From a virus (lineage: Duplodnaviria > Caudoviricetes), in IMG/VR virus record IMGVR_UViG_3300025141_000077, positions 712-64,711 of that record: DNA of 64,000 nucleotides. The stretch is one strand, 5' to 3'. Positions 31,024 through 57,935 of the stretch are shown here, one piece after another. The position numbers and the translations under genes are program-made. Positions within the stretch are counted from its first letter, which is position 1. Each line of letters opens with the position of its first letter. The notes below the pieces were generated by a model, which saw only the letters and a list, made by a program, of their open reading frames with translations, was not told the DNA's origin and searched no databases.

Positions 31024-32406
31024 TCATATACTTTTCCCTACAGTTTTTATCCACCTTTTCCACATTGGTCCTACTGCTTTCATCCAATCATAGTGTTTAA
31101 TAGTGTATTTACGAGCGTTTTTACCGTGCTCTTTTAGTACATCACGATTATGGTAATAATATTCAAAAGCTTCTGCTCCCTTTTGTTCGTCCCATAATGC
31201 CCTCATAGGGGCTGCTCGGATAGGAGTGTCCCACATCATATCTTTGTAAGGTATAAGGAATCCTCTATCAGACTCAATCATATTATCATCCCCATCTAAA
31301 CCGTGAGGGAATAACATTTCTGGAGGACATTGAGGTGAATCAGCTCCTACTAATTCATAACTAGTAGTGTAATTACATATTACATTAGGTTTACCACAAG
31401 ACATAGCTTCTACAGTAGGGATACCAAATCCTTCCCCACCCGTAGGTAATGCGTGGACATCCATCATATTATAAATATCTACCATCCCATCATCATCAGG
31501 GTGTTCTCCATTTTCTAAGTTCCCCATTGTAGGAGGTACCATATATTCTGCAATGTCAAACACTTTGTCACTAGACATATATTGTATATTCCATCCCATA
31601 TGGTCTTCCCAATGCATATGCAATAAGAGTTTAGCATCATCAGGGGTAAGGTTATTCTTTTCTACAAATAATTTAAAGGACCGCATTAATCGAGGAATAT
31701 GTTTGCGGTGTTGGTTTCGTGCCACACACCCAATCACAAAGGCATCATTAGGTCGAGGAATATCTCTTGGTTTAAAGAAATTTGTATCTACACCGTGAGG
31801 AATATAAGTAGATTTGTAACCATTAAAATCTTCTAACATTACAGATTGTCCATATCTGGACATTGCTACAGGATAATCTACGTGTTCTAAAGTACGTAAC
31901 CAGTTAGGAATAGAAGGTTGCCCATCAATAGGGATAATTGAACCTAATTTAAATCTAGGTTTCTGACCCACTTTGTAAGCCTTTCTTGCTAATCTAATAA
32001 AAGACTGTTGATTTTGCCACGTACCTTGTTCATCTACCATAGGTATGTTTAATCCTGATGGTTGTTTATGTTGTGTAACATAATCAAACATTTGGATATC
32101 TAAATGAGTAAAAACTAAATCTGGTTTAAACCCTTCCATCCATTGAGGGAAAGACTTTTCCCCAAACTTTTCTTCACCCGGATGCATTAAGGGAAGTATT
32201 TCAAAAGATACTTTCTTTTCTTCTTGTCCTAAAGGCCAAGGGGTTTCCCAAGAGGGAATATGTTGAGGGTTCTGACACCCTGCAAAACCTAAGGTATGAC
32301 CTTCTTCTGCAAATATACTAGCTATATTTCTTGTATTCGTCCCGAATCCTGTAGGAGCCCAAGGCGAATCACTGATTGGCATTATCCTGACCATTTTATC
32401 ACTCAC
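31024..32406 (-). CDS. GT-B (GT4) glycosyltransferase
   Basis: SDSPWAPTGFG, IPHGVD, RNQHRK, GEGFGIPTVEAMSCGKP motifs. Confidence 0.92.
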   Translation of the reverse strand: MSDKMVRIMPISDSPWAPTGFGTNTRNIASIFAEEGHTLGFAGCQNPQHIPSWETPWPLGQEEKKVSFEILPLMHPGEEKFGEKSFPQWMEGFKPDLVFTHLDIQMFDYVTQHKQPSGLNIPMVDEQGTWQNQQSFIRLARKAYKVGQKPRFKLGSIIPIDGQPSIPNWLRTLEHVDYPVAMSRYGQSVMLEDFNGYKSTYIPHGVDTNFFKPRDIPRPNDAFVIGCVARNQHRKHIPRLMRSFKLFVEKNNLTPDDAKLLLHMHWEDHMGWNIQYMSSDKVFDIAEYMVPPTMGNLENGEHPDDDGMVDIYNMMDVHALPTGGEGFGIPTVEAMSCGKPNVICNYTTSYELVGADSPQCPPEMLFPHGLDGDDNMIESDRGFLIPYKDMMWDTPIRAAPMRALWDEQKGAEAFEYYYHNRDVLKEHGKNARKYTIKHYDWMKAVGPMWKRWIKTVGKSI

Positions 32407-42608: not shown

Positions 42609-42763
42609 TATCCCAAACACTCCACACAAAAGCACGGACTATAATCATCATTCTGCCATTTTACACAATCAGGGTGTTCAATCTTCATTCGTTCTTTGAA
42701 TCTGTCCATCTCTTCTTTATTGGCTCGTTCACATCTCTCACAAGAGCAATCCACACAGACCAT
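42608..42763 (-). CDS. Cys-rich microprotein (51 aa; not in ORF track)
   Basis: MVCVDCSCERC...HPDC...CFCVEC; coupled at both ends. Confidence 0.6.
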   Translation of the reverse strand: MVCVDCSCERCERANKEEMDRFKERMKIEHPDCVKWQNDDYSPCFCVECLG

Positions 42764-43126
42764 TTATTTCTTTACCTTCCTAAACCAGTTGCGCTGTGCA
42801 ATTCTTATTACAAATCTCAGCAATGCAAAACTATAAACTGAATTCAGTTTAATTCTTCCATTAATAGGATGGTCTAGTTTAGCTACTCTTTCATTATATT
42901 CTTCATCGCTCTCAACGTGTCCTTTACAATCGCCTTCACAATCGGGACAATGAATAAAATTACGGTGGATTTGCTTCTCATCTGACCGTGTTTCTATTGT
43001 TATACTTTTCTCACTCTCATCATACTCGAAAGTAGCATACTTAAGCTCTCTTTTAATTACTACTGTATCCTCATCATCTGTTTCCAGCAGATAGTGTTCA
43101 TCTTCATTTATTTCTTCTTCAGACAT
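42764..43126 (-). CDS. Acidic hypothetical protein with a CPDC motif
   Basis: GAGGT SD directly after the structured RNA. Confidence 0.65.
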   Translation of the reverse strand: MSEEEINEDEHYLLETDDEDTVVIKRELKYATFEYDESEKSITIETRSDEKQIHRNFIHCPDCEGDCKGHVESDEEYNERVAKLDHPINGRIKLNSVYSFALLRFVIRIAQRNWFRKVKK

Positions 43127-43140
43127 TTTTACCTCTTTGT

Positions 43141-43270
43141 TGGAACAAGCACACCGGAACAGGGTGTGCCGGGAAAAACAAGTAATAAAACCCGTTGGCT
43201 TGATTTTTAAGGTGTATCATTTAACCCTCTTCCGCATTGAGGGGGCCATACCCATTAATGTGCTTATTCC
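43141..43270 (-). ncRNA. Candidate ~130 nt structured RNA with paired ends
   Basis: TATA at 43293-43300 predicts a start near 43270. 5' GGAAUAA pairs with 3' UUGUUCC-A; adjacent hairpin GCACACC/GGUGUGC; internal stems CCCUC/GAGGG and CGGG/CCCG. Confidence 0.55.
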
Positions 43271-43287
43271 GATTATTAGAATACCTA

Positions 43288-43306
43288 TCTTGTATATAAA
43301 GGTTAT
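43288..43306 (-). promoter_or_regulatory. Archaeal BRE-TATA promoter
   Basis: - strand AATAACCTTTATATACAAG. Confidence 0.7.
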
Positions 43307-43515
43307 TATAAGCATTTTCTTTCATAGTCCCTTCTGCTCATATATCTACCTTTCGCACGAAGCCTAATGTTGCATCCATTACACCACGTATGAGTTTTAT
43401 CCCATATGCTGTGACATTTAGAACACCAATTATATTTTTCATATCCACCTCGCCGAAAACTCGGACCTAGCCGTGCTTTTTCACCGTTGTCGTAGCCGTT
43501 GTAGTCTTTGCTCAT
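43306..43515 (-). CDS. Zinc-ribbon small protein
   Basis: CSKC...CNGC..LR. Confidence 0.65.
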   Translation of the reverse strand: MSKDYNGYDNGEKARLGPSFRRGGYEKYNWCSKCHSIWDKTHTWCNGCNIRLRAKGRYMSRRDYERKCL

Positions 43516-43651
43516 TTATCCATTCCTCTCTTGTTGTATCTTTATAATGCCATTGTCGGCTGTAATGTAAATCCCAGCGACAACCATCACAATAAATTGT
43601 TAAAAAATCTTCACCTATAAAATCGCTCTTACAATGATAACAGTTATTCAT
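43481..43651 (-). CDS. Zinc-finger microprotein (56 aa; not in ORF track)
   Basis: CYHC...CDGC; GAGGTGA SD. Confidence 0.65.
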   Translation of the reverse strand: MNNCYHCKSDFIGEDFLTIYCDGCRWDLHYSRQWHYKDTTREEWINEQRLQRLRQR

Positions 43652-43743
43652 TTAATCACCTCATCAACACAAACATAGCATAATTGGTCTATTGAAATAG
43701 GACATTCATATTTACATCTACGGCATATTCCTATAGTAGCCAT
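43648..43743 (-). CDS. Zinc-finger microprotein (31 aa; not in ORF track)
   Basis: MATIGICRRCKYECPISIDQLCYVCVDEVIK. Confidence 0.65.
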   Translation of the reverse strand: MATIGICRRCKYECPISIDQLCYVCVDEVIK

Positions 43744-43826
43744 TAATCACTTCCACAATGAGGGCAGTTAAACTTGTGGTGTTGCTTCATTCCTATATAA
43801 TTTCCTTTACATCTTATACATTTCAT
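43743..43826 (-). CDS. CPxCG zinc-finger microprotein (27 aa; not in ORF track)
   Basis: MKCIRCKGNYIGMKQHHKFNCPHCGSD; GAGG SD. Confidence 0.65.
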   Translation of the reverse strand: MKCIRCKGNYIGMKQHHKFNCPHCGSD

Positions 43827-43978
43827 TTTATTTTCCTCTTTATTTTTACTCTCTTCTTCGGCACCCTAGTAGGTGCTTCTCTGTATGCCTGATTAAAGTC
43901 TATAAAACTACCACCCTTCTCAGCGGAGGGAGGTAAAGTATATCCTTCATACGGTATCTTAGTTGCTCTCTTTTTCAT
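43823..43978 (-). CDS. Basic microprotein (51 aa; not in ORF track)
   Basis: MKKRATKIPYEGY...KKRVKIKRKIK; ATGA-coupled. Confidence 0.5.
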   Translation of the reverse strand: MKKRATKIPYEGYTLPPSAEKGGSFIDFNQAYREAPTRVPKKRVKIKRKIK

Positions 43979-44147
43979 TTCTCTTTAATATCCATATTGT
44001 TTTCTCAAGCTTACTTAATCTCTCATCAATCTCAGCTCTTAGTGTGTATATATCCCACAATATTCCATCATACGGGGAGCTGGCTAAGTCAATCTCAGTC
44101 TCGCCGCATATGTAATCCAGCATTTGTTTCTTACTTTTTTCGTTCAT
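43959..44147 (-). CDS. Hypothetical protein
   Basis: Operon continuity. Confidence 0.55.
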   Translation of the reverse strand: MNEKSKKQMLDYICGETEIDLASSPYDGILWDIYTLRAEIDERLSKLEKTIWILKRNEKESN

Positions 44148-44397
44148 TCTTTCTCTCTAAAACATTTTGTCTTATACAGTTTGGTGGGTCTGCTTTACGT
44201 GGGTCATAAACTACTGGCCCTACTTCTAACATCCCGCTCTCATCAACCATCTCATATTCTCCGATGTCGTCATCTGAAATTAAAGTATCCAGCAAATCGT
44301 CATCTGTAATGATTTTATTTTTCATTAACTCAGCTACAAATAATGCAAACAGTTTCTTCTCTGCTTCGTTCATATAATTTATGTTGTATTCTTTCAT
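44131..44397 (-). CDS. Hypothetical acidic protein
   Basis: Operon continuity. Confidence 0.6.
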   Translation of the reverse strand: MKEYNINYMNEAEKKLFALFVAELMKNKIITDDDLLDTLISDDDIGEYEMVDESGMLEVGPVVYDPRKADPPNCIRQNVLERKNERKK

Positions 44398-44399
44398 AT

Positions 44400-45134
44400 T
44401 TAAATCTTTGGATGCACGTTAGCACCTGCTTTTGTCCACCGTATTATCTCCCCGTCTTTCCATACACAATAGGCTGCTCGTAAACACTCGTTATCGTGAG
44501 CGTATTGGTCAAACCATTCAAAGAACTCATTATTATCGACTAAATAAGTCTCCATTAACCATACATATTGTGCTCTTATTTTAAAGTTAGGATTTCCTAT
44601 CAATCTATCGTAGTCTATTAAATGCTCCTGAGCCCATAGGTCAAACATCAGCAAACTTTCAGGTATATTTATTCTAATATTCTGTTCTTGTGAAGCATAC
44701 ATTAAAATATGATTAATGCTTCCTATAACAAACGCATATTTACCATCATTTAATCTAATAGGGTAATGCTCATCATTCTTGCCCTGCATTGCTCCCCGTT
44801 TATATAATAAAACTTCTCCCTCCATCTCAGCGAGACCATTAATTAATCTTTGTATAACAGGTTGAGGCACGTGTGCTCTTCTTCCACCACCTGAGCGCCA
44901 TACATAATTACGACCATTCTTTCTATATAATGCTCCATATCCTTTGGTTCTCATTGTGTTTCTCGCTATCATAAATCGGAGCGACTCATCACTTTCAATT
45001 TGTCCTGTTCTTTTCATTAAAGTGTAGCAGGTTGTTTCCTTTTGCCATTCAGCAAGAATGTAATTGAATGTGATATCCGGTTCTTGTGCTGCAAAATCTT
45101 CTAAATTATTTACGTTTATTCTGTATAGTTGCAT
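44400..45134 (-). CDS. Hypothetical protein (244 aa)
   Basis: GGAG SD; no family recognised. Confidence 0.7.
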   Translation of the reverse strand: MQLYRINVNNLEDFAAQEPDITFNYILAEWQKETTCYTLMKRTGQIESDESLRFMIARNTMRTKGYGALYRKNGRNYVWRSGGGRRAHVPQPVIQRLINGLAEMEGEVLLYKRGAMQGKNDEHYPIRLNDGKYAFVIGSINHILMYASQEQNIRINIPESLLMFDLWAQEHLIDYDRLIGNPNFKIRAQYVWLMETYLVDNNEFFEWFDQYAHDNECLRAAYCVWKDGEIIRWTKAGANVHPKI

Positions 45135-45291
45135 CGTGCTCTCCTTTCTTTGGTAATTTTTTGTAGGTGCTGTGTCCTGTTCCTCTCGGATTCTTCTTCT
45201 TCAGTAATCTTTTACGCCAATATGATGACGGATAATATGCTTTGATAAGGTCTTTATCTATCTCTGAAACCTTCTTACGTTTGCGCTTCAC
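45106..45291 (-). CDS. Small basic protein
   Basis: Lys/Arg-rich; GTGA overlap with the upstream stop. Confidence 0.55.
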   Translation of the reverse strand: MKRKRKKVSEIDKDLIKAYYPSSYWRKRLLKKKNPRGTGHSTYKKLPKKGEHDATIQNKRK

Positions 45292-45677
45292 TTTCTTCTT
45301 AACCTCTTAAGCATATTCACGTCTTTCTTATTCATTCCACCAGCATACTTTCCTTTCATATCTCTGCTTCGTTTCATTGAACTTGGATTCCACATATTTG
45401 TGTCACGCTTCATTCTTTCTTTATTCGCTTTAGTGTGTTGGACATATTTCCACTCACCGTCTGAACCCCTAAATCGAGCGGTTCTGTATTCTTCTGTTAA
45501 AACTTCGCTTGGGTCCCACTGATTCTTACACAGCGAACAATAGTAATGGGCGTGGTGATTATTATCTTCAGCATTATACTTCAATTTGTTTGAAGATGCT
45601 TCTTTACACTCGGGGCAAGTCACCTTAACCTGCCCTCGCTTCCCCTTAGGCACTAAAGCCTCCCATTTCATCGTCAT
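45288..45677 (-). CDS. Zinc-ribbon protein with basic tail
   Basis: CPEC...YYCSLCKNQW. Confidence 0.7.
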   Translation of the reverse strand: MTMKWEALVPKGKRGQVKVTCPECKEASSNKLKYNAEDNNHHAHYYCSLCKNQWDPSEVLTEEYRTARFRGSDGEWKYVQHTKANKERMKRDTNMWNPSSMKRSRDMKGKYAGGMNKKDVNMLKRLRRK

Positions 45678-46971
45678 CTAAACTGCTGTAGTCATTTTCT
45701 AAGACATTCCAGCTTTTTAGGTAGTCCTTTATGTCAGCTATAGCAATTACAGCATCATAATTATTTTGTGATACCGGCACATAGTCTTCTAACATATCGC
45801 ACTCAACATAGTAAGTGACAAAGCCATTAGGGATAACAATAGACTTGCCTGAACTGCTGACTCTTACTTGTTCATCTTCAGCTATCCTTTCAAGGCCGGA
45901 ATATTGTCCCTCTTCTGCTTCAATACGGTCTAGCATATCATAAAACTTCATCAACTTTCCTTCTGAAGCGTCATCATCATCCAATGCTGCTGACCAACCA
46001 CTTGAGTTATTACCGTAGTATTTGATACCGCCGTAGTATTCGTATGCTCCTGCACCTTGATACGACCAATTGTATACTGCTCGAGTTGGTTTAAATTCTA
46101 CTTGCTCTGGATGTTTAGTAAAATGCCCGTGTAATTTAGGTAAGAGATGCTGTATAAATCCGAGTGACCTCATTAGGTGCTCCCATATTACATATTCGCT
46201 ACCTGAATGTGCATTGTAATAACCAGCAAATAGATTTATGCCGTTTATATTTAGTTCTGAAACTATTTCACTAACATCAGATATAGAGCCGTTGCACGAT
46301 TTGAGGCCAAAATCTTTACCCCATTCATTAAGCATTGTTTCCATTACATCTGAGCACAACTTGTAATCACTGTTTTGTGTAATTATATCAGTATTGCCGT
46401 TTCTATCAATAGTTATATTGAATACGACATTCTTGAATTTACCGCTGTGATGTTCCATTGCGTGTCTTGCTCCATTACATCCTGTTTCTTCTGATACGGT
46501 CAGAAGTCCGCTTAGTGGTATGTCTATTGCTTTATTGTTTATTGTTTTCAATACTGCAAAGACACCGCACTTGTCATCGCCGCCAATTACCTGATTGTTT
46601 GTTGAGCGCAATACAGTTCCTTTCTTCTTCTGATGCTCGACTATTATGTCTGGAGCAGCAGACCCGACTGTATCCATATGCGCATTCAGCAATATTCTGT
46701 TATCACCTTTAACGTGATTTGCGAAATAGATATTTCCGGCAGTGTCTATCTCATATTCTATCTCAGCGTCACGTAGATATTGTGTCACGTATGCAATCAT
46801 AGCGTGTTCATCTCCGCTTGGACTAAAGATAGAGAACATAGAGCCGATTAAGTCTATATCACTCATTGCTGTCATATTTTCAGGTATCTTGGTAATGATG
46901 CTTTTACTTGCCTTTTCTTCAATAGTCTTTTCAGCTATTGCTTTTGTTGGTTCTTGCTCTTCACTACTCAT
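45646..46971 (-). CDS. M20/M28-family zinc peptidase/amidohydrolase
   Basis: SPSGDE, AHMDTV, GGDDKCG, SEETG, IDR, GSISD, GYYNAH metal-ligand motifs. Confidence 0.9.
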   Translation of the reverse strand: MSSEEQEPTKAIAEKTIEEKASKSIITKIPENMTAMSDIDLIGSMFSIFSPSGDEHAMIAYVTQYLRDAEIEYEIDTAGNIYFANHVKGDNRILLNAHMDTVGSAAPDIIVEHQKKKGTVLRSTNNQVIGGDDKCGVFAVLKTINNKAIDIPLSGLLTVSEETGCNGARHAMEHHSGKFKNVVFNITIDRNGNTDIITQNSDYKLCSDVMETMLNEWGKDFGLKSCNGSISDVSEIVSELNINGINLFAGYYNAHSGSEYVIWEHLMRSLGFIQHLLPKLHGHFTKHPEQVEFKPTRAVYNWSYQGAGAYEYYGGIKYYGNNSSGWSAALDDDDASEGKLMKFYDMLDRIEAEEGQYSGLERIAEDEQVRVSSSGKSIVIPNGFVTYYVECDMLEDYVPVSQNNYDAVIAIADIKDYLKSWNVLENDYSSLDDDEMGGFSA

Positions 46972-48682
46972 TTTCGTTTACCTCTATGGTATAATATTCA
47001 GTGCCGCCTATAAATTCTTGGGCAGCATAACGTAGATTTGGACTTGCTTCTACATCTCTTCTGATGTTGCTGTATCTAATTCTTTGGTCCTCGTCTTTGT
47101 AATATGTAAATTCTGCTTCACTACTATCAGGTTTGCTTTCCCAAAATGGCGACCAAGTCAGCGTTTCAAGATTTACTCTTGTGCCTTCCCTTTTAACTTG
47201 TAATTTGGTGCTATCTCTTAAGAAATTATAAATGCTTGAATCGTGCCTTGAATTTCTATATGCAATTAATTCATATCCCTCAGCAAATGACTCTTTTGCC
47301 CATTCATTTAATGCTTGGAAGAGTCCAACATACACTTCTTTTTTAGCGTTTGTGTGCTGGGATAAATATATTCTTGAAGGAGCAATAAACATAGGATGCT
47401 CATCATCCCATTGCTCTTTAAATAGTCTAACAACTGCACGGCCAATCATATTGCCGTCATCATCTCTAAGGATAGTCAGCAAATGTGGATTAACCACCAT
47501 ATCAAATGCTCCAAACGCATATGCTTGGTTGTTTCCCCTTGTTTGACAACTTCTTAATGCTTCACCATTGTTATAGTTCTCCATCAGCGTATCTAAATCA
47601 AAGCCTATTTGAACACCTACTTTTGTATTAACTACATTAGTTTGGTATTGCTGGAAATGAGTATCCCAATTGCTTTGTTTATAATCTGCATATTGTGGGA
47701 ATCTTACCTTGTAAGCACGAGAGAATATCTGATTGATTGCTCTCTTTAAGTCTGCGCCGTCGTCTGTCTTGTTTTCTTTAAGCATAGATGTTATTCCATC
47801 TACGCCGACATACTCAAGCGAATAATTATAATAATTTTGGCCGAGTTCTTGCATACTAATTTCATCACCCTTAACCACGCCGCCTTCTTTTCTGTTATAA
47901 TATTTAATATGCTTTCTAAATAAATGCCTCAATGGGTGATAAAGCCCATAAGCCTTATGCTCTTGTAAAAATGTGTCAAGTTGCATCATTTCATAGAACA
48001 TTTGCGCTGTTCTTTTGTAAACAGGGCTGCTTAATGTTATTTGTCCTTTCCACCAAGCACCACCATCATCTGATGCTGCTGTTTGTGGTCCTAAGCAATC
48101 TTTATTAATTAAATAAGGGTTATATTCATACTCATCTAAAGCATAACCATAAAATTCTTTTATCGCACTCATCTCTGAAGCACCTGCACGTCTGTAAGCG
48201 TCTTTCAAATGCATACTGCTTACACTTATAGTGCGTGATGCTTCTTGTGCTATATCTCTATGACCGCTTCGATTATAACAATCTTCACATCGCAGTTCAT
48301 AATAATGGTCAGTGCCGATTTCATAAAAATAAATGTCCGCTCCACACTGTTCACAACAACAGCAAGTAGAATCATTGCAGTTATGACATACTATCTCACC
48401 GCTGTATTCACTGTCATTATAATAATCGCCGTTTCGCATATCAATAATTTCGCCGCAACTATCACAGTCGCTGTAATCTCCACCGTGTCGGCAGTCGTGA
48501 CATACGTCACCGCCCGGCACAGGATGCTTATCATCAGATGCTGTAAATTCATCACTACAATCGTAGCATTCCCATAAACTATTACGGCAAGAAGTGCATA
48601 CGCATTCATAGTTTGCCGTGGATTCTATATTGTCAGAATTTTCTTCTGCTCCACATATCTCACACTCTGCTGTATTACACAT
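46964..48682 (-). CDS. Multi-CxxC N-terminal zinc-finger array fused to a putative PcfJ/GNAT-like domain
   Basis: Eight CxxC pairs in the first ~140 aa; later RSCQ...IGRAVVR...RIY pattern. Fold call is tentative. Confidence 0.6.
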   Translation of the reverse strand: MCNTAECEICGAEENSDNIESTANYECVCTSCRNSLWECYDCSDEFTASDDKHPVPGGDVCHDCRHGGDYSDCDSCGEIIDMRNGDYYNDSEYSGEIVCHNCNDSTCCCCEQCGADIYFYEIGTDHYYELRCEDCYNRSGHRDIAQEASRTISVSSMHLKDAYRRAGASEMSAIKEFYGYALDEYEYNPYLINKDCLGPQTAASDDGGAWWKGQITLSSPVYKRTAQMFYEMMQLDTFLQEHKAYGLYHPLRHLFRKHIKYYNRKEGGVVKGDEISMQELGQNYYNYSLEYVGVDGITSMLKENKTDDGADLKRAINQIFSRAYKVRFPQYADYKQSNWDTHFQQYQTNVVNTKVGVQIGFDLDTLMENYNNGEALRSCQTRGNNQAYAFGAFDMVVNPHLLTILRDDDGNMIGRAVVRLFKEQWDDEHPMFIAPSRIYLSQHTNAKKEVYVGLFQALNEWAKESFAEGYELIAYRNSRHDSSIYNFLRDSTKLQVKREGTRVNLETLTWSPFWESKPDSSEAEFTYYKDEDQRIRYSNIRRDVEASPNLRYAAQEFIGGTEYYTIEVNENE

Positions 48683-48703
48683 TTAATTTGCTCCTGAAAC
48701 GAA

Positions 48704-48781
48704 TGGACCTGCCGACCGGATTTGAACCGGTGTCCGAGCAACAAGATTGCCCGATGATGGGCCGGACTACACTACGGCAGG
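48704..48781 (-). tRNA. tRNA-like gene, 78 nt with encoded CCA; anticodon position reads CTT (nominally Lys), atypical
   Basis: Acceptor CCTGCCG/CGGCAGG-T-CCA; D-arm GTGTAGTCCGGCCCATCAT; anticodon arm GGGCA-ATCTTGT-TGCTC; 4 nt variable loop; T-arm ACCGG-TTCAAAT-CCGGT. Confidence 0.85.
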
Positions 48782-48855
48782 AACTATTTCGCTTCATTTT
48801 ATTATTCTCGTTGCTTTTTCTCAGATTGCTCACTGTGAACTGCTCTATCACCTTC

Positions 48856-48873
48856 CTTATATATAAAGACTTC
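48856..48873 (-). promoter_or_regulatory. BRE-TATA promoter for the tRNA-like gene and downstream operon
   Basis: - strand GAAGTCTTTATATATAAG. Confidence 0.7.
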
Positions 48874-49107
48874 TCAGCGTCTGTTTTTTCTCTCTTAACT
48901 TTGCCGGGAACGAAACCAGAATCGGAGGAGCAGGGAAAACAATAACCTGCTTTAATTCTAACTTCGTTCCTATCGGCGTTCATCTTTTATTATTCTTCGC
49001 TCCAATAATAACATTCAAACCAAGCATCATACCAATCTATCATCTGTGCTCTCTATAATGTAATTGAAATGCTACGAACATATACCAAGCTTCATTGCTT
49101 CCTATCA

Positions 49108-49251
49108 TTAAAAATGTCCTGTGCTCATTACGTTATCCATTGCTTTCTGATGCACAGCATAACAGTCCTTACACATATCGGCAGCTTGCCAAAATTCTAA
49201 TGCTGGTTTACCACACAGCAGTTTACATTTCTTTTGCTCTTTTTTGTTCAT
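49108..49251 (-). CDS. Zinc-finger microprotein (47 aa; not in ORF track)
   Basis: CKLLCGKPA...CKDCY; TAATG-coupled at both ends. Confidence 0.6.
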   Translation of the reverse strand: MNKKEQKKCKLLCGKPALEFWQAADMCKDCYAVHQKAMDNVMSTGHF

Positions 49252-49400
49252 TAAAGCAACTCCATTACTTCGCCCCATTGCTCGTCATCAATAGTGCCGT
49301 TTTGATATAACGGCGCAGTCCATAAACTGCCGTCAATCATTGCATATATGTTGCCGGGGAATAGGTTTATGCTGAATGTTTCTTCTTTGCTTGGTATCAT
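49251..49400 (-). CDS. Microprotein (49 aa; not in ORF track)
   Basis: MIPSKEETFS...WGEVMELL; coupled at both ends. Confidence 0.55.
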   Translation of the reverse strand: MIPSKEETFSINLFPGNIYAMIDGSLWTAPLYQNGTIDDEQWGEVMELL

Positions 49401-49825
49401 CTTCGCTTCCTTCTTATTAATTTGCCGTCTACACGACTTCTATCTCCGCCGTATCGATTCTTGCCGTGGACTCCACCGCTTTGATAACCCATACCTGCGT
49501 GCTTCTTTACATCAATCATAATTGCTTTGTGGTTTACATCCTTGTCAGCAAGTGCCTCAAAGAATTGCCGTAAGAAATTATCTATGTCGCTGTGTTGAAT
49601 CACTGCTGGGTTCTTGTTGAACCACTCTGCTGCACACTCTCTCACTGACTTGCTTAGTTTCTTATCTGCTGGATATATATTCAGCATAGGTCGGGAACCT
49701 TTCAAGCGTATCATATAATTATTTAACTCAGCAAGGACTGATGCCGGAGGCATCGCTGCTTCCTTATCTTCCTGCTTCATAATTTCCACCATACGCCGTG
49801 TTGTGCGTAATAACTTCTGCTCCAT
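49397..49825 (-). CDS. Hypothetical early protein
   Basis: Operon continuity. Confidence 0.6.
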   Translation of the reverse strand: MEQKLLRTTRRMVEIMKQEDKEAAMPPASVLAELNNYMIRLKGSRPMLNIYPADKKLSKSVRECAAEWFNKNPAVIQHSDIDNFLRQFFEALADKDVNHKAIMIDVKKHAGMGYQSGGVHGKNRYGGDRSRVDGKLIRRKRR

Positions 49826-50133
49826 CCAACAACTTTATCCGGCACATATGAACAGGGCGTTGCTGATGTATCTTCCCTAAAGCAAGAACATACTATGCCG
49901 GGTAATAACCCGTAGTGTGCTGCTTTTTCTTTTCTATAACGCTTCATTTTCCTATCCGGCGTATCTTCGGTTCCAGCATAAGTAGAATACTTTGCTTCAA
50001 CCTCTTCTTGCTTCTTTCTTATTGCGAGCGCAATTAGAAATGCTTTTTCTAACCCCTGCCGTATATCTGATGGCAAGGATGCGAGCGGTCCTATGTCACG
50101 CTCTAATTGTTTTTGCTGTGTTTTATTTAACAT
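49777..50133 (-). CDS. Hypothetical early protein, first gene after the control region
   Basis: GAGGAGG SD; promoter at 50201-50219. Confidence 0.65.
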   Translation of the reverse strand: MLNKTQQKQLERDIGPLASLPSDIRQGLEKAFLIALAIRKKQEEVEAKYSTYAGTEDTPDRKMKRYRKEKAAHYGLLPGIVCSCFREDTSATPCSYVPDKVVGWSRSYYAQHGVWWKL

Positions 50134-50200
50134 TGCTTTGCTTTCCTCCTCTATTAATTATGCCGTCTTGCGGTTGCTTAATAGACATTGCTCTAATGTC

Positions 50201-50221
50201 AGGGTTATATATAAACCCTTC
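50201..50221 (-). promoter_or_regulatory. TATA promoter flanked by a 6 bp inverted repeat
   Basis: AGGGTT ATATATA AACCCT. Confidence 0.65.
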
Positions 50222-50225
50222 TTCC

Positions 50226-50620
50226 AGCATAAAAATCGCGGGTATCAAGCGCTATGCATATACTATACTGCTAAGCATATGTATAGTAAGCATATGTTAA
50301 GATATATTATGCTTTAGTATTACTAAGCAAGATATATTAGATATGTGCTCTATTAAGCATAAAGAGAGAGAGTGCTCTATATAGTATAGTATACGTATGC
50401 TTATAATTTGTCCTTAAACGTATGCTTTGGGACTTTCTTTTAACGCTCACACACACACCAAACCAGTTCAGCAAACTAAAACCGACAGTTTATGCTCGAA
50501 TATTAATTTCTCTCTTATGCTATCAGACGTTCTGCTCTTATTCTCTTTTTTTATGCTCTGCCGTCAGGGGTGCTGAGCATACGTTGTCTTTATATAGGGA
50601 GTATATAAAGTAATTATGCT
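50226..50620. repeat. Array of 12 TATGCT/AGCATA hexamers in AT-rich non-coding DNA
   Basis: Copies at 50226, 50274, 50289, 50308, 50356, 50396, 50421, 50491, 50516, 50552, 50576, 50615. Confidence 0.75.
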
Positions 50621-50730
50621 TCTGCCGTCATTCTCATCACGGCGGTCCGTTGCCGTTGCCGTCACCGGTTGTTATGCCGAGAGCGTTCTCATCTACACGG
50701 CAAGGTTCTGCTTCTGCCGTGACCGAACCC
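50615..50730. repeat. GC-rich degenerate tandem duplication built on TGCCGT/ACGGC
   Basis: Two ~55-60 bp units: TGCCG..TTCTCATC..ACGGC..GGT..TGCCGT.ACCG. Confidence 0.7.
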
Positions 50731-50757
50731 CTCTTATTGTCTTTGATTCACTGTAAC

Positions 50758-50799
50758 AAAAAAAGTAAGCAGTTTTTGGTTAAGTCTTGCTCAGGACTC
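50758..50799 (-). terminator. H-type pseudoknot followed by a T7 tract
   Basis: GAGUC-C-UGAGCA-A-GACUU-AACCAAAAAC-UGCUUA-C-UUUUUUU. Confidence 0.55.
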
Positions 50800-50825
50800 G
50801 ACGCTGGTGAGACAGTGGGTAAGTA

Positions 50826-51158
50826 TCAGGGCACTGCAATATCTTTTACGTGTCCGTTTGTTTTTACTCTTTTGATTTCAAATACAGTATCACAACTACC
50901 ACAATGGAATGTTGTTTCGTTTGCAAAATCAGATATCTTGAATTCAAGGTTCCCGTTGATGTTTACACTTACAAGTTCGTCTATTGCACAGTATGGACAT
51001 ACGTATTCACTGAGTCTTATGTCTGGTTCTTCAGCTTCTTTGATGCCTTCTTCCTCCATCATACTCCTAATCCAACCGTGATAGAGTTTTTGGTCATAGA
51101 TACTCAGTTCAAATGCAACTGCCAAACAATTCTTTAGGATTTTAAACATCTTAGTCAT
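50826..51158 (-). CDS. Zinc-ribbon protein
   Basis: CPYC...CGSCDTVF. Confidence 0.7.
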   Translation of the reverse strand: MTKMFKILKNCLAVAFELSIYDQKLYHGWIRSMMEEEGIKEAEEPDIRLSEYVCPYCAIDELVSVNINGNLEFKISDFANETTFHCGSCDTVFEIKRVKTNGHVKDIAVP

Positions 51159-51501
51159 ACGATGGTATTCCCTCAGATTCTATTCTTTCTTCTAAATGTT
51201 TTGGTATTTGCTTGTAATTAAATACAAGGTCAGTTAACCAGTCCATAAATTTGTGTCTGTTACTCATATCGAGTCTTCCATATGCACTGATAATTCCATC
51301 TTCTAAGTATTTGATGTATTTACCTCTTAAGTATCCCAGTGCGTCTGTTTCTCTACTGTATGTTTGGTCGTAGAATATCCTACTAAATTCATAGATGGAC
51401 ATTTCTTCTCTCTCTTTCAGTTCTTCAACTGCGAAAAACATTATTTCATACATTTCTCTCTTAGCCATTTTTGTAGCTTGTTCTTTTGTTATTTTATTCA
51501 T
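51151..51501 (-). CDS. Hypothetical protein
   Basis: GGAGG SD. Confidence 0.65.
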   Translation of the reverse strand: MNKITKEQATKMAKREMYEIMFFAVEELKEREEMSIYEFSRIFYDQTYSRETDALGYLRGKYIKYLEDGIISAYGRLDMSNRHKFMDWLTDLVFNYKQIPKHLEERIESEGIPSYD

Positions 51502-51519
51502 TTGTTGTATTCCTCCGTT

Positions 51520-51565
51520 AAAAAAATTATGGTGTAGAACTGAGCACCCCGCCGCCCAGTCCTAC
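51520..51565 (-). terminator. Hairpin plus T tract
   Basis: 12 bp stem GTAGGACTGGGC/GCTCAGTTCTAC, then T7. Confidence 0.6.
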
Positions 51566-51599
51566 TACTTCTTGCTTTTTATTCAACAGTTAGTTGGAT

Positions 51600-52199
51600 T
51601 TACGCCTTCTTATGAAGTGCCTCCAATCTGGACTCACGGTCTGCAATGAATTTCTTGCATAGTGCCTTTACAGTGATGCCTTTCTGTGCCTCTGGTATGA
51701 ATTCTAAGAGTCCCTCATTACTTGTGGTTATGTGTTTCTCTAATTCTTCAGGGTTGCCTTTGTAGTGAACCAATTCATTAGTTATTTGTTCTACACTCTT
51801 TCGTGCCTTGCGTTTGGTTGGATTCTTTCGAATACCCAAAACAGCGTGCACTTCTGGTGCAAATATTGATTCAAACCATCTCTTGTTTAAAACGACTTGT
51901 TCTTTAGTCATCTTTATCTCTTGATGTCCTGCATCACCAGTTAGTTTAGTTCTTGCTACATTCGCAAATGCGGTTGCCATATCAGGTCGAAGTCCTTTAG
52001 CTCTGTTATCTTTCTTCCAGTGCCTCTTGTTCTCCAAGTCCTCGAACCCAATGGCTCTTAACACGCCTTCATAGTCGCCTGTCCCAAACTTTGTTGTCTC
52101 GTCAGTAAAGGTCATATATGCACCTCGACTTCCGGATTCTTTCTCCAACACGTGATTCCACGTATTTTGCTTTTTCTCTGTTTCTATTTTCTTACCCAT
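51600..52199 (-). CDS. Hypothetical protein (~199 aa)
   Basis: Likely ATG start at MGKKIE; followed by a terminator. Confidence 0.7.
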   Translation of the reverse strand: MGKKIETEKKQNTWNHVLEKESGSRGAYMTFTDETTKFGTGDYEGVLRAIGFEDLENKRHWKKDNRAKGLRPDMATAFANVARTKLTGDAGHQEIKMTKEQVVLNKRWFESIFAPEVHAVLGIRKNPTKRKARKSVEQITNELVHYKGNPEELEKHITTSNEGLLEFIPEAQKGITVKALCKKFIADRESRLEALHKKA

Positions 52200-52605
52200 A
52201 GATTTATTGATGGTCTTGCGTTCATAATCAGTAAGGGAGACCAAACCCAAACCGAGTCAGTTAATTTATTAATCATCATCACATTTATATGATGAAAGAA
52301 AAAAACGATTTCTCTCTCACCCTTACTATTAGTGGAAAGGACTGATTTGAGACCCTCGTAATTGTCTTCGCATTCATTATTGTATTCAATCATTATTGTC
52401 TTAGTAGAGAGCCCGCAGGGCGATTCTTAGTCTTTCCCAAACCTCTTTTTTGATTTGACGTAGAAGTCTCCAATTCTTGCCTCTCTGAGAAAGATATTCC
52501 AATATTCTTCTTTGGATAATTCTTCCTTTTCTTCGAAAGTCATTTCAGGTGGATTCTTCCTATATACATATGTTTTACCATCTTTTTCATAGAATTTAGT
52601 CATTC

Positions 52606-52902
52606 TTAATCCCTCTCAGTGAGTCCAACAGTTCTTAAATCTGTCTTTTCATTCCAATGTTCATCTGATGACTTAATCTGTTCACGTAGAGTTTCCATAT
52701 CTGGGCGATTTCTTCCCTCTCTCATACACAAACATTGAAAACAGTCTTCTGTCTTAGATTCGTTATATGGGGTATCACAGAATTCACATATAGGGTCTGT
52801 CTTATACGACTCTTTTTCCCTATCTATGAGTTTCTGTAGTTTCTTACTAATAGGTTTCTTGTTCTTATTAGTTGACTGGTGGAGGTCTCTATATTGACTC
52901 AT
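52606..52902 (-). CDS. Zinc-finger protein
   Basis: CEFC...CFQC; start reassigned to the ATGA overlap at 52902. Confidence 0.6.
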   Translation of the reverse strand: MSQYRDLHQSTNKNKKPISKKLQKLIDREKESYKTDPICEFCDTPYNESKTEDCFQCLCMREGRNRPDMETLREQIKSSDEHWNEKTDLRTVGLTERD

Positions 52903-53018
52903 TGCATCCACTCTGGTAGTTCTATCCAACAAGCGTGACACCTGTGCCCGAATCCTTTATTTGATTCAGCCATAGGTGCCTTACAGTCTTTACAGTTGTA
53001 GTTGCCAATACTAATCAT
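52899..53018 (-). CDS. Zinc-finger microprotein (39 aa; not in ORF track)
   Basis: CKDC...CHAC. Confidence 0.65.
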   Translation of the reverse strand: MISIGNYNCKDCKAPMAESNKGFGHRCHACWIELPEWMQ

Positions 53019-53406
53019 AGTATCCAGCCCCTGTCTGATATGTCTTTCTTCTTACAGACTCACAGTGCAAACAATCATCAAGTCCAGTGCATTGTGGTTT
53101 AGTATTCAGTGCAGAGCCAGTGCCATTACAAGGATAGCAAAGCCCATTATCTATGTGCCCAAAGTGAAGCAGAACGCCTTTTCCATTGCATTTCCAGCAT
53201 TTGGATTTAGCGTCCTTTCTTTGCATATTTCTACGTTGGGTTTGTAGTCCCTTGTATATCCATTCTACTCTGTCTTCGTGAGTCCAGTTTAGATTGTTCT
53301 TGAGTTCGTGTCTTGATAAGGCACGTGACTCGTTAGCCATTCTTGAGATGTCTTCTGGTTCATAACCAGTGTCTTCCCTACATTCTTTTCGAGTTTTGTT
53401 CTTCAT
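53011..53406 (-). CDS. Protein with a DnaJ-type CxxCxGxG zinc finger
   Basis: CWKCNGKG...CYPCNGTG; GGAG SD. Confidence 0.75.
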   Translation of the reverse strand: MKNKTRKECREDTGYEPEDISRMANESRALSRHELKNNLNWTHEDRVEWIYKGLQTQRRNMQRKDAKSKCWKCNGKGVLLHFGHIDNGLCYPCNGTGSALNTKPQCTGLDDCLHCESVRRKTYQTGAGYYD

Positions 53407-53580
53407 TGTTTTACTCCGATGTTTTCCGCATATCTACATTCAGTGTGTATACGTATGTTCATCAGTTCACTATGAACAAGTAAAGAAAGGGTAGGGTCTA
53501 AAGTGACTTCTCTTATTGTCTTATGTATAAGTCCACCCCTTCAAACAAACACTAGAGAATTTTGAGTAGGCAGGGATGTT

Positions 53581-53618
53581 AAAAAAAAATTGGGGACAAA
53601 TTTTGAATCCTGTCCCCG
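53581..53618 (-). terminator. Hairpin plus T9 terminator
   Basis: GGGGACA/TGTCCCC stem followed by TTTTTTTTT. Confidence 0.7.
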
Positions 53619-53624
53619 AAAGAT

Positions 53625-54068
53625 TTACTTGGTATTATCAAGGGCAGTTTTAACTTTCCCTTTTACCAAAGATTTAAGCTGGTCGTCTTTTTCGTCCCAA
53701 GCTGTTAAGACTACTTTTCTTAGAAGTTCATCTTTTACTTGAGCCTTGAGTGTTTCATCAAGTTTTTCATAGGCGGCTGCTTGTGCTTTTGTTAGATTTT
53801 CTTCCAATAGTGCTTCAATTTGAGCATCGTATCTTTTCAGATACTTGTTCAAGATTGGTAGTAGCGCAGCTTTTATGGTAGGATTTGTGTAACACACAAA
53901 AGCTACTAGAGCTCCGACACAAGCCAATAATGCAAGCACCATAGGTTCTTCCAACAAACCACTTTCTTCGACTACGTTTAACAAATCAGCTGTTGTATTA
54001 CCGTCAGTTGCGGTATTATTGTCAGCTGTGTTGTTAGTAGCAGTCTGATTTGATGTTTCGTTTGCCAT
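53625..54068 (-). CDS. Single-pass membrane protein with sequon-rich N-terminus and helical C-terminus
   Basis: NET, NQT, NNT, NNT, NTT in the first 26 aa; TM MVLALLACVGALVAFVCY. Confidence 0.75.
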   Translation of the reverse strand: MANETSNQTATNNTADNNTATDGNTTADLLNVVEESGLLEEPMVLALLACVGALVAFVCYTNPTIKAALLPILNKYLKRYDAQIEALLEENLTKAQAAAYEKLDETLKAQVKDELLRKVVLTAWDEKDDQLKSLVKGKVKTALDNTK

Positions 54069-54131
54069 TTTTCCTCGAGGTGGAACCCGTTGGTATCTAA
54101 ATCAATACCCATTCGGGGTTCCATTATTATA

Positions 54132-55067
54132 TTACTTTTTCTTACTATATATACCTTTTGGCTCACAGGGCTTTTTGTAGAAGGCACACCACTTACAAAG
54201 TGTTTGAGGTACTAATTCATACTGCTCAATGTCGTCCCCCCTTTTCTTTAATTCGTCGTGTATGCCTTTGATAAGGTCCCGCGCTTCTTCGATTACACCG
54301 TCGTTAATGGCGACAAAATAGCAGTCGTCATACCGCAACCAATCGATACCCGCGAATTTTGGGGTTACTCCGGTTTCTTCTTGGTACAATAGAGCATATA
54401 TTATTAATTGGCGGTAGTAGTCGTCAGGTAACCAGTTTCCATATCGCTTACTGGTTTTATAATCAACTATAGAGATATTACCCTCGAAGTCTTTTTGGAT
54501 AACATCTATAATACCCATTATTTTGTATTCTTTATTATGAACTCGCATTTCAGAAAATGTGGGTTTAAGTTGTTTAAAGGCCATATCTTTAGAACGAGCT
54601 ACACCCCAGTCCATTAGTTCGTGCAGCTTCTTTTCGACACGGTGGCAGAAGTTAACGAGTAGGTCTATCGTTTCCCCTTCCATACGGTCTCCGTCAATGT
54701 CGGGGTTCTTCCATAACCACGGCATTTTCTTTTTACGTTCTGTCCATTTCTTACGAAATTCGAGAATCGCCCACTCCTGCGGTTCGGCGTTTCGCCATCG
54801 ACTAGGATATTTAAATTCTTTTTCAAACAGTTCTTCAAGTATTTCGTGAACTATGGTACCCCGGAAAAGGTGCAGGGTTAATTGGTCAGGTAACTTTTCG
54901 ATATATTTGTAATAGAATTGACGAGGACAATGTAAAAAAGTATTTATTTTAGATGGTGATAGACGATTAATACTTGGTGTCCAGTCTATATCTTCAGTTT
55001 CAGGTTCTGTTTCAGTATTCACACTGACAGTGTACGTGACATTAGAGTCACTTTGAGTTTCTTTCAT
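54132..55067 (-). CDS. Cas4/AddB-like PD-(D/E)XK exonuclease with Fe-S cysteines
   Basis: LSPS..CPR, GTIVH, GIID, VDYKT, QLIIY, CKWC.....C; no CRISPR or other cas genes. Confidence 0.88.
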   Translation of the reverse strand: MKETQSDSNVTYTVSVNTETEPETEDIDWTPSINRLSPSKINTFLHCPRQFYYKYIEKLPDQLTLHLFRGTIVHEILEELFEKEFKYPSRWRNAEPQEWAILEFRKKWTERKKKMPWLWKNPDIDGDRMEGETIDLLVNFCHRVEKKLHELMDWGVARSKDMAFKQLKPTFSEMRVHNKEYKIMGIIDVIQKDFEGNISIVDYKTSKRYGNWLPDDYYRQLIIYALLYQEETGVTPKFAGIDWLRYDDCYFVAINDGVIEEARDLIKGIHDELKKRGDDIEQYELVPQTLCKWCAFYKKPCEPKGIYSKKK

Positions 55068-55088
55068 ATTTTTCTAACATATCTAGAA

Positions 55089-55201
55089 TCTATATAAAGG
55101 TTTGGGATTACTACATACGTTAAGCAAAGAAAGCATATGTTAAGGTATTTTGGTACTATATAGTACTATACTATAGAGCTATGAGGAAAAACTTTATAAG
55201 T
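55089..55201. promoter_or_regulatory. Divergent promoter region at the early/late strand switch
   Basis: - strand CCAAACCTTTATATA (55091-55105); + strand GAAAAACTTTATAAG (55186-55200); palindrome GTACTATATAGTAC (55153-55166). Confidence 0.7.
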
Positions 55202-55222
55202 AAATCCAACCAAGTTTAATTT

Positions 55223-56170
55223 ATGGTTCCTGATGATTATGGTGCAATCAGTGTTATTTCAGACGAAGAGAAAGAGATGTTAGGCATTGGTGGTTCCAAA
55301 AAACCTGATGAAGAGGAAGAAAAACTTTTCGAGACTATTGGCAAAGCTGCTGATAAGATAGGAGAAACAAAAGTAGGGCAAAAAATTGGAACCATTATAA
55401 CCGTCGTTTTACTGGCGATATTGAGTGGGGGGGCCAATATGTCTATCATACACGATTATTTTAATGGTGATGAAGAAATTGGTCCCATCGGGGGTTGTTT
55501 ACAAACAGATGCTACTAACTATAACCCTCAAGCTACGTTTGATGATGGAAGTTGTAACTTCTTAATTATTATATATGGATGTACTAACTCTGAAGCTGAA
55601 AATTATGATGACCAAGCTACGCACGATGATGGACGTTGTGTAGTTTTAAACGACGGTAATGGTAGTGCAAATGAAACGGCCATTTATGGTTGTATGGATA
55701 TAGATGCTAATAATTATGATGATAAAGCCACCGAAGATGATGGTTCGTGCGATTATGAGGATGAATATGAAGAACCTGAATGTAATTCTACATCAGTACT
55801 TTTTTATCCCGGATGGTACGACCAAGAGACAGAAAATATGTCTGTTTACTGGGTAAACGAAACAGCTGAAGGCATATCCGTACTGACAGATATAGATGCT
55901 GAGTGTAGTGATTATAATGCGTCTGTATTAGTTTACGTAGACGTTTGGCACGAAGAGTCTGGTGATTATAATTGGACAGATATATATTTAACAATCAATG
56001 GTGATAATTGGGATAACCACTGGTTTAATTTTACTTTTGAAGAACTTAACGAAACAGAAGGTGAATGGTCTATGTGGGTAGCACTACTCGTATGGGACGA
56101 GGTAGATGAAGAATATACATTCCAACAACAGTTTGATATCCCAATGATAAGAGTGGAGGCAGAGGTATGA
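55223..56170 (+). CDS. Membrane-anchored acidic surface protein with three GCxxxxAxNY..A..DDGxC repeats
   Basis: One TM helix, three disulfide-type repeats, ~10 N-x-S/T sequons. Confidence 0.8.
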   Translation: MVPDDYGAISVISDEEKEMLGIGGSKKPDEEEEKLFETIGKAADKIGETKVGQKIGTIITVVLLAILSGGANMSIIHDYFNGDEEIGPIGGCLQTDATNYNPQATFDDGSCNFLIIIYGCTNSEAENYDDQATHDDGRCVVLNDGNGSANETAIYGCMDIDANNYDDKATEDDGSCDYEDEYEEPECNSTSVLFYPGWYDQETENMSVYWVNETAEGISVLTDIDAECSDYNASVLVYVDVWHEESGDYNWTDIYLTINGDNWDNHWFNFTFEELNETEGEWSMWVALLVWDEVDEEYTFQQQFDIPMIRVEAEV

Positions 56171-57599: not shown

Positions 57600-57935
57600 A
57601 TGGAAGAAGATGTAGATAATTATATAACTCGATTAAGAAAACGAGTTGGAGAAGGAGAATATGAACGTCATAAAGAACTTGTCCGTCTTTTGGCAAGAAA
57701 TCTTGTTATTGAAGACTTGCTTTGGGAAGAAATTTCTGTATCTATTCGGGATGTTAACAAGAGAACAAAGCTCTTGCAACAGAGAAACCAAATTGTACGC
57801 GATATTCACACTGAGTTCCGCGCTCTTAATATTGAAATACCTACTTTAGTAGAAGAAAAGACCGAAAACTTTATGAACTTCTTAGGAGAGTTGGAAGATG
57901 ATGATACCAGTAGCGAACAAAACGAAAGAATATAA
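57600..57935 (+). CDS. Putative terminase small subunit
   Basis: Helical 111 aa protein overlapping the TerL start. Confidence 0.55.
   Translation: MEEDVDNYITRLRKRVGEGEYERHKELVRLLARNLVIEDLLWEEISVSIRDVNKRTKLLQQRNQIVRDIHTEFRALNIEIPTLVEEKTENFMNFLGELEDDDTSSEQNERI

Follow-up and report, generated by a model that had tools for sequence, protein, structure and literature searches.

The uncultured marine tailed virus (Duplodnaviria; Caudoviricetes) represented by IMG/VR record IMGVR_UViG_3300025141_000077 carries the hexamer TGCCGT in a strand-biased gradient that rises through coding DNA and stops abruptly at 50.72 kb of the window, that is, the 64,000-nucleotide (nt) stretch analysed here (bases 712-64711 of the 64,711-base record, without a terminal repeat), whose positions are used throughout. 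It is clear that this gradient is real and that it is composite, with repeats of a non-coding control region, copies within genes and a track of GpC steps overlapping in it. The gradient marks the start of the second, or middle, leftward transcription unit of the virus, and within the GpC tract TGCCGT is a separately over-represented word that is held by rare codons. A protein nucleating at the control region may make contacts with the duplex DNA of this track, an explanation that is favoured below at somewhat less than even confidence.

Relatives were assembled in two ways. Loci L001-L007 came from one protein scan and two pattern scans of viral contigs, and 39 metagenome loci were retrieved with an ultra-conserved 23-nt core that begins at 50455. 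Orientation on this core gave 47 sequences (46 loci and the window), and the 19 lineages cited for the variable region right of the core are the core-oriented sequences with enough right flank.

TGCCGT in the coding DNA left of the control region

The sixteen plus-strand copies listed in an earlier, sequence-only reading of this DNA (46239, 46395, 47452, 48614, 49295, 49328, 49423, 49462, 49566, 50057, 50161, 50559, 50623, 50651, 50657 and 50715) were all found again, as were its three inverse copies (48584, 48774 and 50697). Its remark that twelve copies crowd into the final stretch, with few elsewhere, is equally accurate: twelve plus-strand copies lie in 49295-50720, and beyond 46.2-50.8 kb the hexamer occurs six times on the plus strand and six times on the minus strand. 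Both strands of the whole window hold 31 copies versus 11.4 (standard deviation 3.2) in dinucleotide shuffles, and at least 31 were reached in 0 of 100 shuffles. As the k-mer statistics suggested with that reading now confirm, TGCCGT is the most locally enriched hexamer of 49.2-50.72 kb, with 12 copies versus 0.26 expected from the rest of the window; 46.0-50.76 kb holds 16 versus 0.98 expected from other minus-gene territory. Local Markov models of this latter segment expect 1.1 (order 1), 3.8 (order 2) and 8.9 (order 3) copies versus the 16 observed, and GT comes after TGCC there in 16 of 33 cases. The GCCG class as a whole is enriched too, with 37 occurrences on the plus strand versus 3.6 expected, and 13 on the minus strand.

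The excess is reduced by a codon-aware model, from about 47-fold to 4-5-fold, but it persists. When synonymous codons were permuted within each gene, 8 copies stood against 1.64 expected, a count of at least 8 being reached in 0 of 2000 permutations, and with the gene of 49 amino acids (aa) included there were 10 against 2.7 (z score 4.4). TGCCGT is selected at the nucleotide level, and it is oriented. The segment does have codon and dinucleotide usage of its own, which the sequence-only reading had named as a reason for doubt if it reflected recent acquisition, but this usage is common to all relatives and is therefore old.

Ten of the plus-strand copies are coding. The proposal that the motif is superimposed on genes through rare GAC/AAC GGC codons describes the seven of these that read xAC-GGC-A; it does not extend to two formed through CGG (Arg), to one read as ACG-GCA (in the open reading frame (ORF) 49251-49400, read by hand), or to the six non-coding copies (50161 and 50559-50715). 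Both codons are rare in the genes of the window, GGC making up 131 of 1334 Gly codons and CGG 30 of 777 Arg codons. When the region is aligned with L001 and L002, the copies at 49295, 49328, 49462 and 49566 are kept in both relatives and that at 49423 in L002, and those at 50057 and 50161 are found in the window only; the sequence around the 46239 copy is met again in L013 and L034. A codon alignment of the gene for a 142-aa protein shows the CGG of the 49566 copy (TTA CGG CAA) retained in nine of nine lineages, and the stretch around 49423 (AGT CGT GTA GAC GGC A) nearly invariant, with GAC GGC A in five of seven close lineages. A single codon is kept across these seven in 8 of the 47 columns of this gene with an invariant degenerate residue, and five of the eight are in or beside the two ACGGCA sites (49566 and 49423).

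The excess is also found in relatives. Plus-strand TGCCGT exceeds the local order-2 expectation in seven of nine lineages (10/2.7, 9/2.1, 6/1.6, 12/1.5, 10/1.5, 3/0.27 and 2/0.14, observed over expected), and the 4 kb to the right hold 0-1 copies in nine of ten. In L013 and L034 no hexamer ranks above TGCCGT, some of whose copies there fall in genes that the window does not have. A fixed distance between TGCCGT and the start codons downstream of it was considered as a rule and rejected; it holds for two copies of the window and fails in L013.

An evenly spaced track of GpC steps

The rise toward an abrupt edge that the sequence-only reading described is real, but it is much clearer for TGCT, and for GpC generally, than for TGCCGT alone. 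Plus-strand TGCT occurs 3-7 times per kb at 38-44 kb and 12-23 times per kb at 46-50.8 kb, then 1-3 times per kb, and the sawtooth formed by TGCT and GCCG is seen in all lineages, so that the analogous gradients to be sought in related genomes do exist. The GpC odds ratio is 1.25-1.51 at 44-50 kb versus 0.8-1.0 in most other 2-kb bins, GG is depleted, and the GpC steps of the tract are mostly TGCY on the plus strand.

These steps are not only frequent but evenly spaced. The coefficient of variation (CV) of the gaps between GpC steps falls from 0.67 to 0.47 over nine consecutive 1.5-kb intervals (42.75-50.25 kb) and elsewhere lies at 0.74-1.43, and among the 16 dinucleotides only GC is regular (CV 0.54 versus 0.83-1.19). 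Subsets of GpC that are specific to one strand are less regular, which identifies the palindromic step of the DNA duplex as the unit. The gaps peak at 14-16 and 21-27 nt and fall sharply beyond 27 nt; the GC spectrum has no histone-like 10-bp periodicity peak. Synonymous permutation of four tract genes gave mean CVs of 0.87, 0.91, 0.78 and 0.76 versus the observed 0.55, 0.54, 0.45 and 0.45, and permutations as regular as the genes themselves numbered 0, 0, 0 and 1 of 1000, whereas nine control genes were ordinary. NGC codons supply 73 of 215 GpC steps in the tract versus 26 of 203 in control genes.

All relatives with a left flank show a GpC CV of 0.41-0.66 left of the core and of 0.76-1.4 right of it, even where the genes are others, and it is clear that the track is bound to position and not to gene identity. 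A literature search for regularly spaced GpC in phage genomes returned nothing relevant among the matches listed, which does not establish novelty, and the text of the magrovirus paper (PMC5434244) leaves promoter, TATA and origin of replication unmentioned.

The control region and its genomic setting

The abrupt edge of the TGCCGT gradient is the boundary between two transcription units. The early unit runs leftward from 55.07 to 50.83 kb and ends at a T-run, and the second (middle) leftward unit begins after a non-coding control region (Table 1) whose architecture is kept across the 19 lineages. The A-run ACAAAAAA, the plus-strand equivalent of the T-run, is present in 15 of the 19; the hairpin before it was read by eye in the alignment.

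Table 1. Features of the window that bear on the TGCCGT gradient, the GpC track and the control region.
Feature	Position	Strand	Remarks
Evenly spaced GpC steps	42750..50250		7.5 kb; density rises rightward from 53 to 97 GC per 1.5 kb; largest gap falls from 77 to 37 nt
Four TGCCGT copies	46239..48619	+	within minus-strand genes for a 441-aa peptidase-like protein and a 572-aa protein
tRNA-Lys(CUU)	48704..48781	-	acceptor stem holds inverse copy 48774
Six coding TGCCGT copies	49295..50062	+	in the 49-aa, 142-aa and 118-aa genes
142-aa protein, fold unassigned	49397..49825	-	in all 9 lineages compared; holds three copies
Non-coding control region, 690 bp	50134..50825		between two leftward transcription units; no supported ORF
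TGCCGT copy	50161..50166	+	28 nt upstream of the 118-aa gene ATG, just before GGAGG; this lineage only
TTTATATA box, likely promoter of the downstream unit	50208..50215	-	75 nt upstream of the 118-aa gene; CTTTATATATAACCCC in L001
Operator-like AAGCATATG.. repeats	50273..50301	+	block about 90% identical to relatives
Ultra-conserved 23-nt core ACACC..CAAACT	50455..50477	+	polymorphic (CA)n directly before
Five non-coding TGCCGT copies (50559, 50623, 50651, 50657, 50715)	50559..50720	+	plus inverse copy 50697 and ACGGCG 50639
Back-to-back TATA boxes TTTATATA	50589-50596 (+), 50602-50609 (-)		sequence pattern
Two iteron-like units TTCTCAT-N-ACGGCR	50631..50644, 50686..50702	+	sequence pattern
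Run of seven T, likely terminator of the upstream (early) unit	50758..50764	-	after a short hairpin; upstream gene stop 50826

The copies at 50559-50720 form the arms of inverted repeats around TTCTCA boxes, an elaboration specific to this lineage, in which the GC-rich parts of the array are TGCCGT/ACGGCR (five plus-strand copies and one inverse within 160 bp). At least two TTCTCA boxes occur in 17 of the 19 lineages and the full unit TTCTC[AT]-N1-12-ACGGC[AG] in nine; ACGGCA is found on the plus strand of ten variable regions and TGCCGT on that of only four, with five copies in this lineage, four in L009, three in L007 and one in L018. The conserved element is therefore the inverse of TGCCGT, tied to TTCTCA. 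Measured against iterons, which call for three or more direct repeats of 17-22 bp with a shared core, the window holds two clear TTCTCAT..ACGGCR units and one degenerate unit, and its relatives have 2-5 boxes. Close strains have gained or lost 20-nt units whole and carry stem-breaking changes without compensation, and neither strand of 50535-50830 gave RNA folds better than those of shuffled sequence (z -1.18 and -1.20), so that the units are best read as putative iteron-like protein sites; the TGCCGT/ACGGCR arms had been considered as hairpins and were rejected as such on account of these changes and whole-unit indels. Rfam gave no match at gathering score in the window. At the same place a distant clade (L006:3700-4140 on the minus strand, L023, L038 and L046) has a tandem array of units of about 45 nt (TTTCTCAY..ACCGCTGCAGC) together with CCAGCGTGAGCTT repeats, and this clade shows the GpC track and no TGCCGT excess.

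In archaeal promoters a TATA box stands some 25 nt ahead of the start site, and first genes are leaderless. The segment 55068-55222 is a divergent promoter region in which TATA boxes stand exactly 23 nt before the ATGs at 55067 (minus strand) and 55223 (plus strand) with no Shine-Dalgarno sequence between, so that both a fixed-distance box and leaderless first genes are predicted, and this spacing suggests archaeal TATA-dependent transcription and an archaeal host. TTTAWATA matches the window 35 times; nine matches are intergenic, and seven of the nine lie at most 180 nt from the start of a gene or tRNA on the same strand. A plus-strand TTTATAT[AG] is present in the variable region of 11 of the 19 lineages, and a scan for sigma-70 promoters and terminators gave no promoter-like match inside 50134-50825. 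The window has exactly two copies of the operator-like 14-mer AAGCATATGTTAAG: one belongs to the repeats of the control region (50288), the second to this divergent promoter region (55131).

The core itself matched exactly in five viral loci (as an enclosing 26-mer) and in the 39 metagenome loci. The (CA)n run at 50443-50454 varies in length among strains (two bases are missing at 50448 in the sequencing runs X3 and X4) and coincides with contig breaks. Contigs of the same two runs join 50492 to 55424, and some relatives may lack or replace the early segment of about 4.9 kb right of the core. A longer contig, L017 (Ga0080013_1000060, 143,640 bases), has motif counts around the core equal to those of the window; at about twice the genome length, it is possibly a chimera or a concatemer-like product of assembly.

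The inverse copy at 48774 belongs to the tRNA-Lys(CUU) gene, whose 5' end reads CCUGCCGU, that is, its acceptor stem. The complementarity between ACGGCA and this RNA, to which the sequence-only reading had drawn attention, is trivial, as any word complements its own inverse copy. A 102-aa ORF (48675-48983, minus strand) overlaps the tRNA and is probably not a gene; its translation is partly tRNA sequence, which is also found in ORFs of L013 and L025. A contig of runs X1 and X2 joins 48780 to 49108, skipping 327 bases from the exact 5' end of the tRNA-Lys gene, and in X3 and X4 a joint skips 49031-49397 with 20 other letters in between; these joints look like polymorphic indels next to the tRNA gene.

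The genome is 92% complete by CheckV. Genes at 21-55 kb run leftward and include those for a Cas4-like exonuclease, a family B DNA polymerase (PolB), a B12 ribonucleotide reductase, an N6_N4 methyltransferase, a resolvase and a sugar-transfer cluster (23282-28334 and 31024-32406, minus strand, with GT2/GT1 glycosyltransferases, an NAD epimerase/dehydratase, three small methyltransferase-domain proteins and DUF2334). Rightward genes start at 55.2 kb with the large terminase (TerL), portal, major head protein and tail genes. All sequencing runs that carry this virus are marine metagenomes (24 runs, as contigs). Among isolated phages, a DNA search with the region and a protein search with the 572-aa protein gave no match, PolB reaches only 23% identity (Salinibacter, cyano- and jumbo phages) and TerL at best 26% (Halogranum tailed virus 1 and Bacillus phages); no solved structures related to the 572-aa or 477-aa proteins were found. 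Judged by these comparisons, the virus has no characterised relative and is remote from every isolated phage. The 110-, 118- and 142-aa proteins that flank the control region were without a family in Pfam, PHROG and NCBIfam scans. An AF2 model of the 142-aa protein (pLDDT 67) has four helices and a disordered basic tail, and Foldseek found no match to it in the PDB at E<=0.001, rows for Fis at E>1 not being used.

Readings of the track and their alternatives

Iteron arrays are found at plasmid and phage origins or control regions (lambda ori, iterons of the P1/F/R6K type). The array described here resembles them in that its direct repeats, each roughly 20 nt long, join a constant TTCTCAY half to one that varies, in its copy changes by whole units, and in its non-coding position beside promoters; it differs in that the window has two clear units and a degenerate one, in that the variable half differs between lineages, and in that no initiator gene was found. 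Tracks of short sites are familiar from SeqA on GATC tracts near oriC and from ParB, which spreads from parS. Cbp1 binds CRISPR repeats, according to PMC10883916. The GpC track shares with these systems its many short sites, bounded spacing over several kb, greatest density by a control site and presumed role in transcription or replication control. Its unit is unlike theirs in being a dinucleotide step written into coding DNA through codon choice, and graded; no methylase-reader pair and no ParB or Cbp1 homologue was found.

The proposal of an oriented protein-loading signal survives in part. TGCCGT is selected, oriented, conserved in relatives and aimed at a fixed, repeat-rich non-coding site, and for these reasons the gradient is still best read as an oriented or "spreading" protein signal; the packaging and Chi/KOPS variants of the proposal are not supported. 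Chi and KOPS are likewise short asymmetric words with a strong strand bias that point at a fixed site, but the bias here (16 plus versus 3 minus in 46.2-50.8 kb) is confined to about 4.5 kb, copies outside, counted by hand, being seven sense and five antisense. It has no tie to replication direction, both orientations occur inside the repeat array, and no RecBCD/AddAB- or FtsK-type enzyme turned up among the scanned window proteins.

The explanation favoured here, with a confidence somewhat below an even chance, is that the track serves as a set of contact points on duplex DNA for a protein whose nucleation site is the control region. A virus-encoded protein or a host chromatin protein would contact duplex DNA along the track; it would nucleate on the iteron-like units of the control region and then coat the promoter-proximal part of the operon, and this coating might set the timing of middle transcription or of the start of replication. 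Because the dispersed copies are oriented opposite to the iteron half-site, the track would have a polarity with the control region at its centre. A broader statement is more tentative: it is possible that some 7.5 kb of coding DNA bears, by codon choice, a ruler-like GpC track, a signal of a new kind for which TGCCGT would be a marker, conserved in position in a clade of marine, probably archaeal, viruses, which is read by a filament of fixed reach or by a modification system as part of an early-to-middle switch. Near the control region the gaps of this track are rarely greater than 27 bp.

Several observations weigh against this explanation. Synonymous conservation is not significant for codons that strictly overlap the motif (P about 0.13, by hand), and TGCCGT is without a flanking consensus and, as a hexamer, short for a specific protein site. 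Lineages share descent, so that counts across them are not independent, and in two of them TGCCGT is scarce in the left flank (0 copies in L006, 1 versus 0.6 expected in L023) despite a GpC track in both. In the variable regions of other lineages the repeats consist of other GC-rich words, which their coding flanks do not echo, and only in this clade can the iteron word be linked to the dispersed one. For the 142-aa protein neither a family (Pfam, PHROG, NCBIfam) nor a fold match was obtained, and a binding protein for the track was not found. Promoter spacing is the sole basis on which the host is considered probably an archaeon. An antisense or iteron echo as a general rule was tried and rejected, the repeat words of other lineages being unenriched in their coding flanks.

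Among the alternatives, it is unlikely that the track is one of DNA modification, in which GpC[C/T] steps, TGCCGT included, would be targets of cytosine modification, evenly spaced, with gaps seldom longer than 27 bp, so that within the promoter-proximal genes a modified base falls in any footprint of the size of a nuclease or guide. The enriched plus-strand words TGCT and TGCC are GC followed by C or T, the gap histogram falls sharply after 27 nt, and the genome has the N6_N4 methyltransferase and, at 23.3-28.3 kb, a cluster of glycosyl- and methyltransferases. According to PMC8256090, GpC[C/T] is the main recognition sequence of those phage C5-methyltransferases that are linked to TET and glycosyltransferases, a specificity that matches the enriched words; that system marks all genome sites and is not described there as a spaced local tract. 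Searches of the 64.7-kb genome, 92% complete, gave 0 matches at E<=1 for PF00145 (C5-methyltransferase) and for PF12851 (Tet_JBP), so that the enzymes of that system are lacking here; the sugar genes may serve the capsid or host surface, and restriction of the pattern to this one tract would be left unexplained.

Nor is it likely that the signal acts in RNA, with ACGGCA or RGCA on the middle transcript read by an RNA-binding protein, a ribonuclease or an antisense RNA from the plus-strand TATA box at 50589, so as to tune translation or stability. It is true that 16 of the 19 tract copies have the mRNA sense, that two copies lie 24-28 nt upstream of start codons, adjoining ribosome-binding sites in a common context (AGACGGCAWAATTAATAR), that the last 45 nt of the 142-aa gene are synonymously conserved where they overlap the start region of the next gene, and that a T.G pair in one hairpin, read by hand, favours the plus strand. 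The regular spacing, however, belongs to the strand-symmetric GpC step and to no strand-specific word, five copies fall in the gap that separates the terminator from the nearest leftward TATA box, and the copies of L013 are at no fixed distance from starts; the shuffle-level folds and uncompensated stem changes of 50535-50830 are also contrary to a signal of this kind.

That the pattern has no function at all is quite improbable. On this view the segment would be an island of distinct composition, peculiar in its codons and dinucleotides, and TGCCGT would be carried along by it and by conserved protein sequence. Composition here is indeed peculiar: in tetranucleotide composition 44.4-50.8 kb is the segment that correlates least with the rest (r 0.43-0.55), AGC makes up 27 of 112 Ser codons at 45.6-50.1 kb versus 6 of 264 in 21-38 kb genes and 0 in nine early genes (50.8-55 kb), GGC makes up 12 of 35 and 15 of 37 Gly codons in two large genes, well above the overall share of Gly codons given above, the GpC odds ratio is raised, and most coding copies are common to L001 and L002 by plain homology. 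Even so, the TGCCGT excess persists under gene-wise codon permutation and local order-2 Markov models, even spacing cannot come from composition, six copies are non-coding, rare codons are retained at the sites though the lineages differ at most other synonymous sites, and the signature is found in all relatives and tracks position instead of gene identity.

A packaging start, DNA-entry or end-protection signal of pac- or Chi-like type, with a physical genome end near 50.75 kb, is very improbable: short oriented repeats do cluster by the abrupt edge (several copies of one hexamer within about 160 bp, as in the phage P1 pac site), 17 of 47 core-oriented loci have less than 105 nt of sequence to the left of the core and three runs have contigs that break at 50436-50499, but the large terminase (57898-59583) is on the plus strand 7.2 kb from a cluster that ends at 50720, so that the cluster is not beside terminase genes as at pac or cos, relatives use other words at the same place, the window's contig and those of L002, L006, L025, L034, L043 and L044 continue through the site, the breaks fall at a polymorphic (CA)n with a depth spike in sequence common to co-occurring strains, which is expected assembly-graph behaviour, and the strand bias is local and not replicon-wide.

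If a protein, or a modification system, does read the track, these viruses would write a distance-graded, long-range signal into coding DNA by the placement of a dinucleotide, a layer of information to which gene-centred annotation is blind. The 23-nt core together with the CV of GpC gaps provides a means of finding such regions elsewhere. Were the track a target of modification, it would be relevant to the protection of the viral genes expressed first against host nucleases. If it is read, it would offer a first handle on the timing of expression or the control of replication in widespread, uncultured marine viruses.

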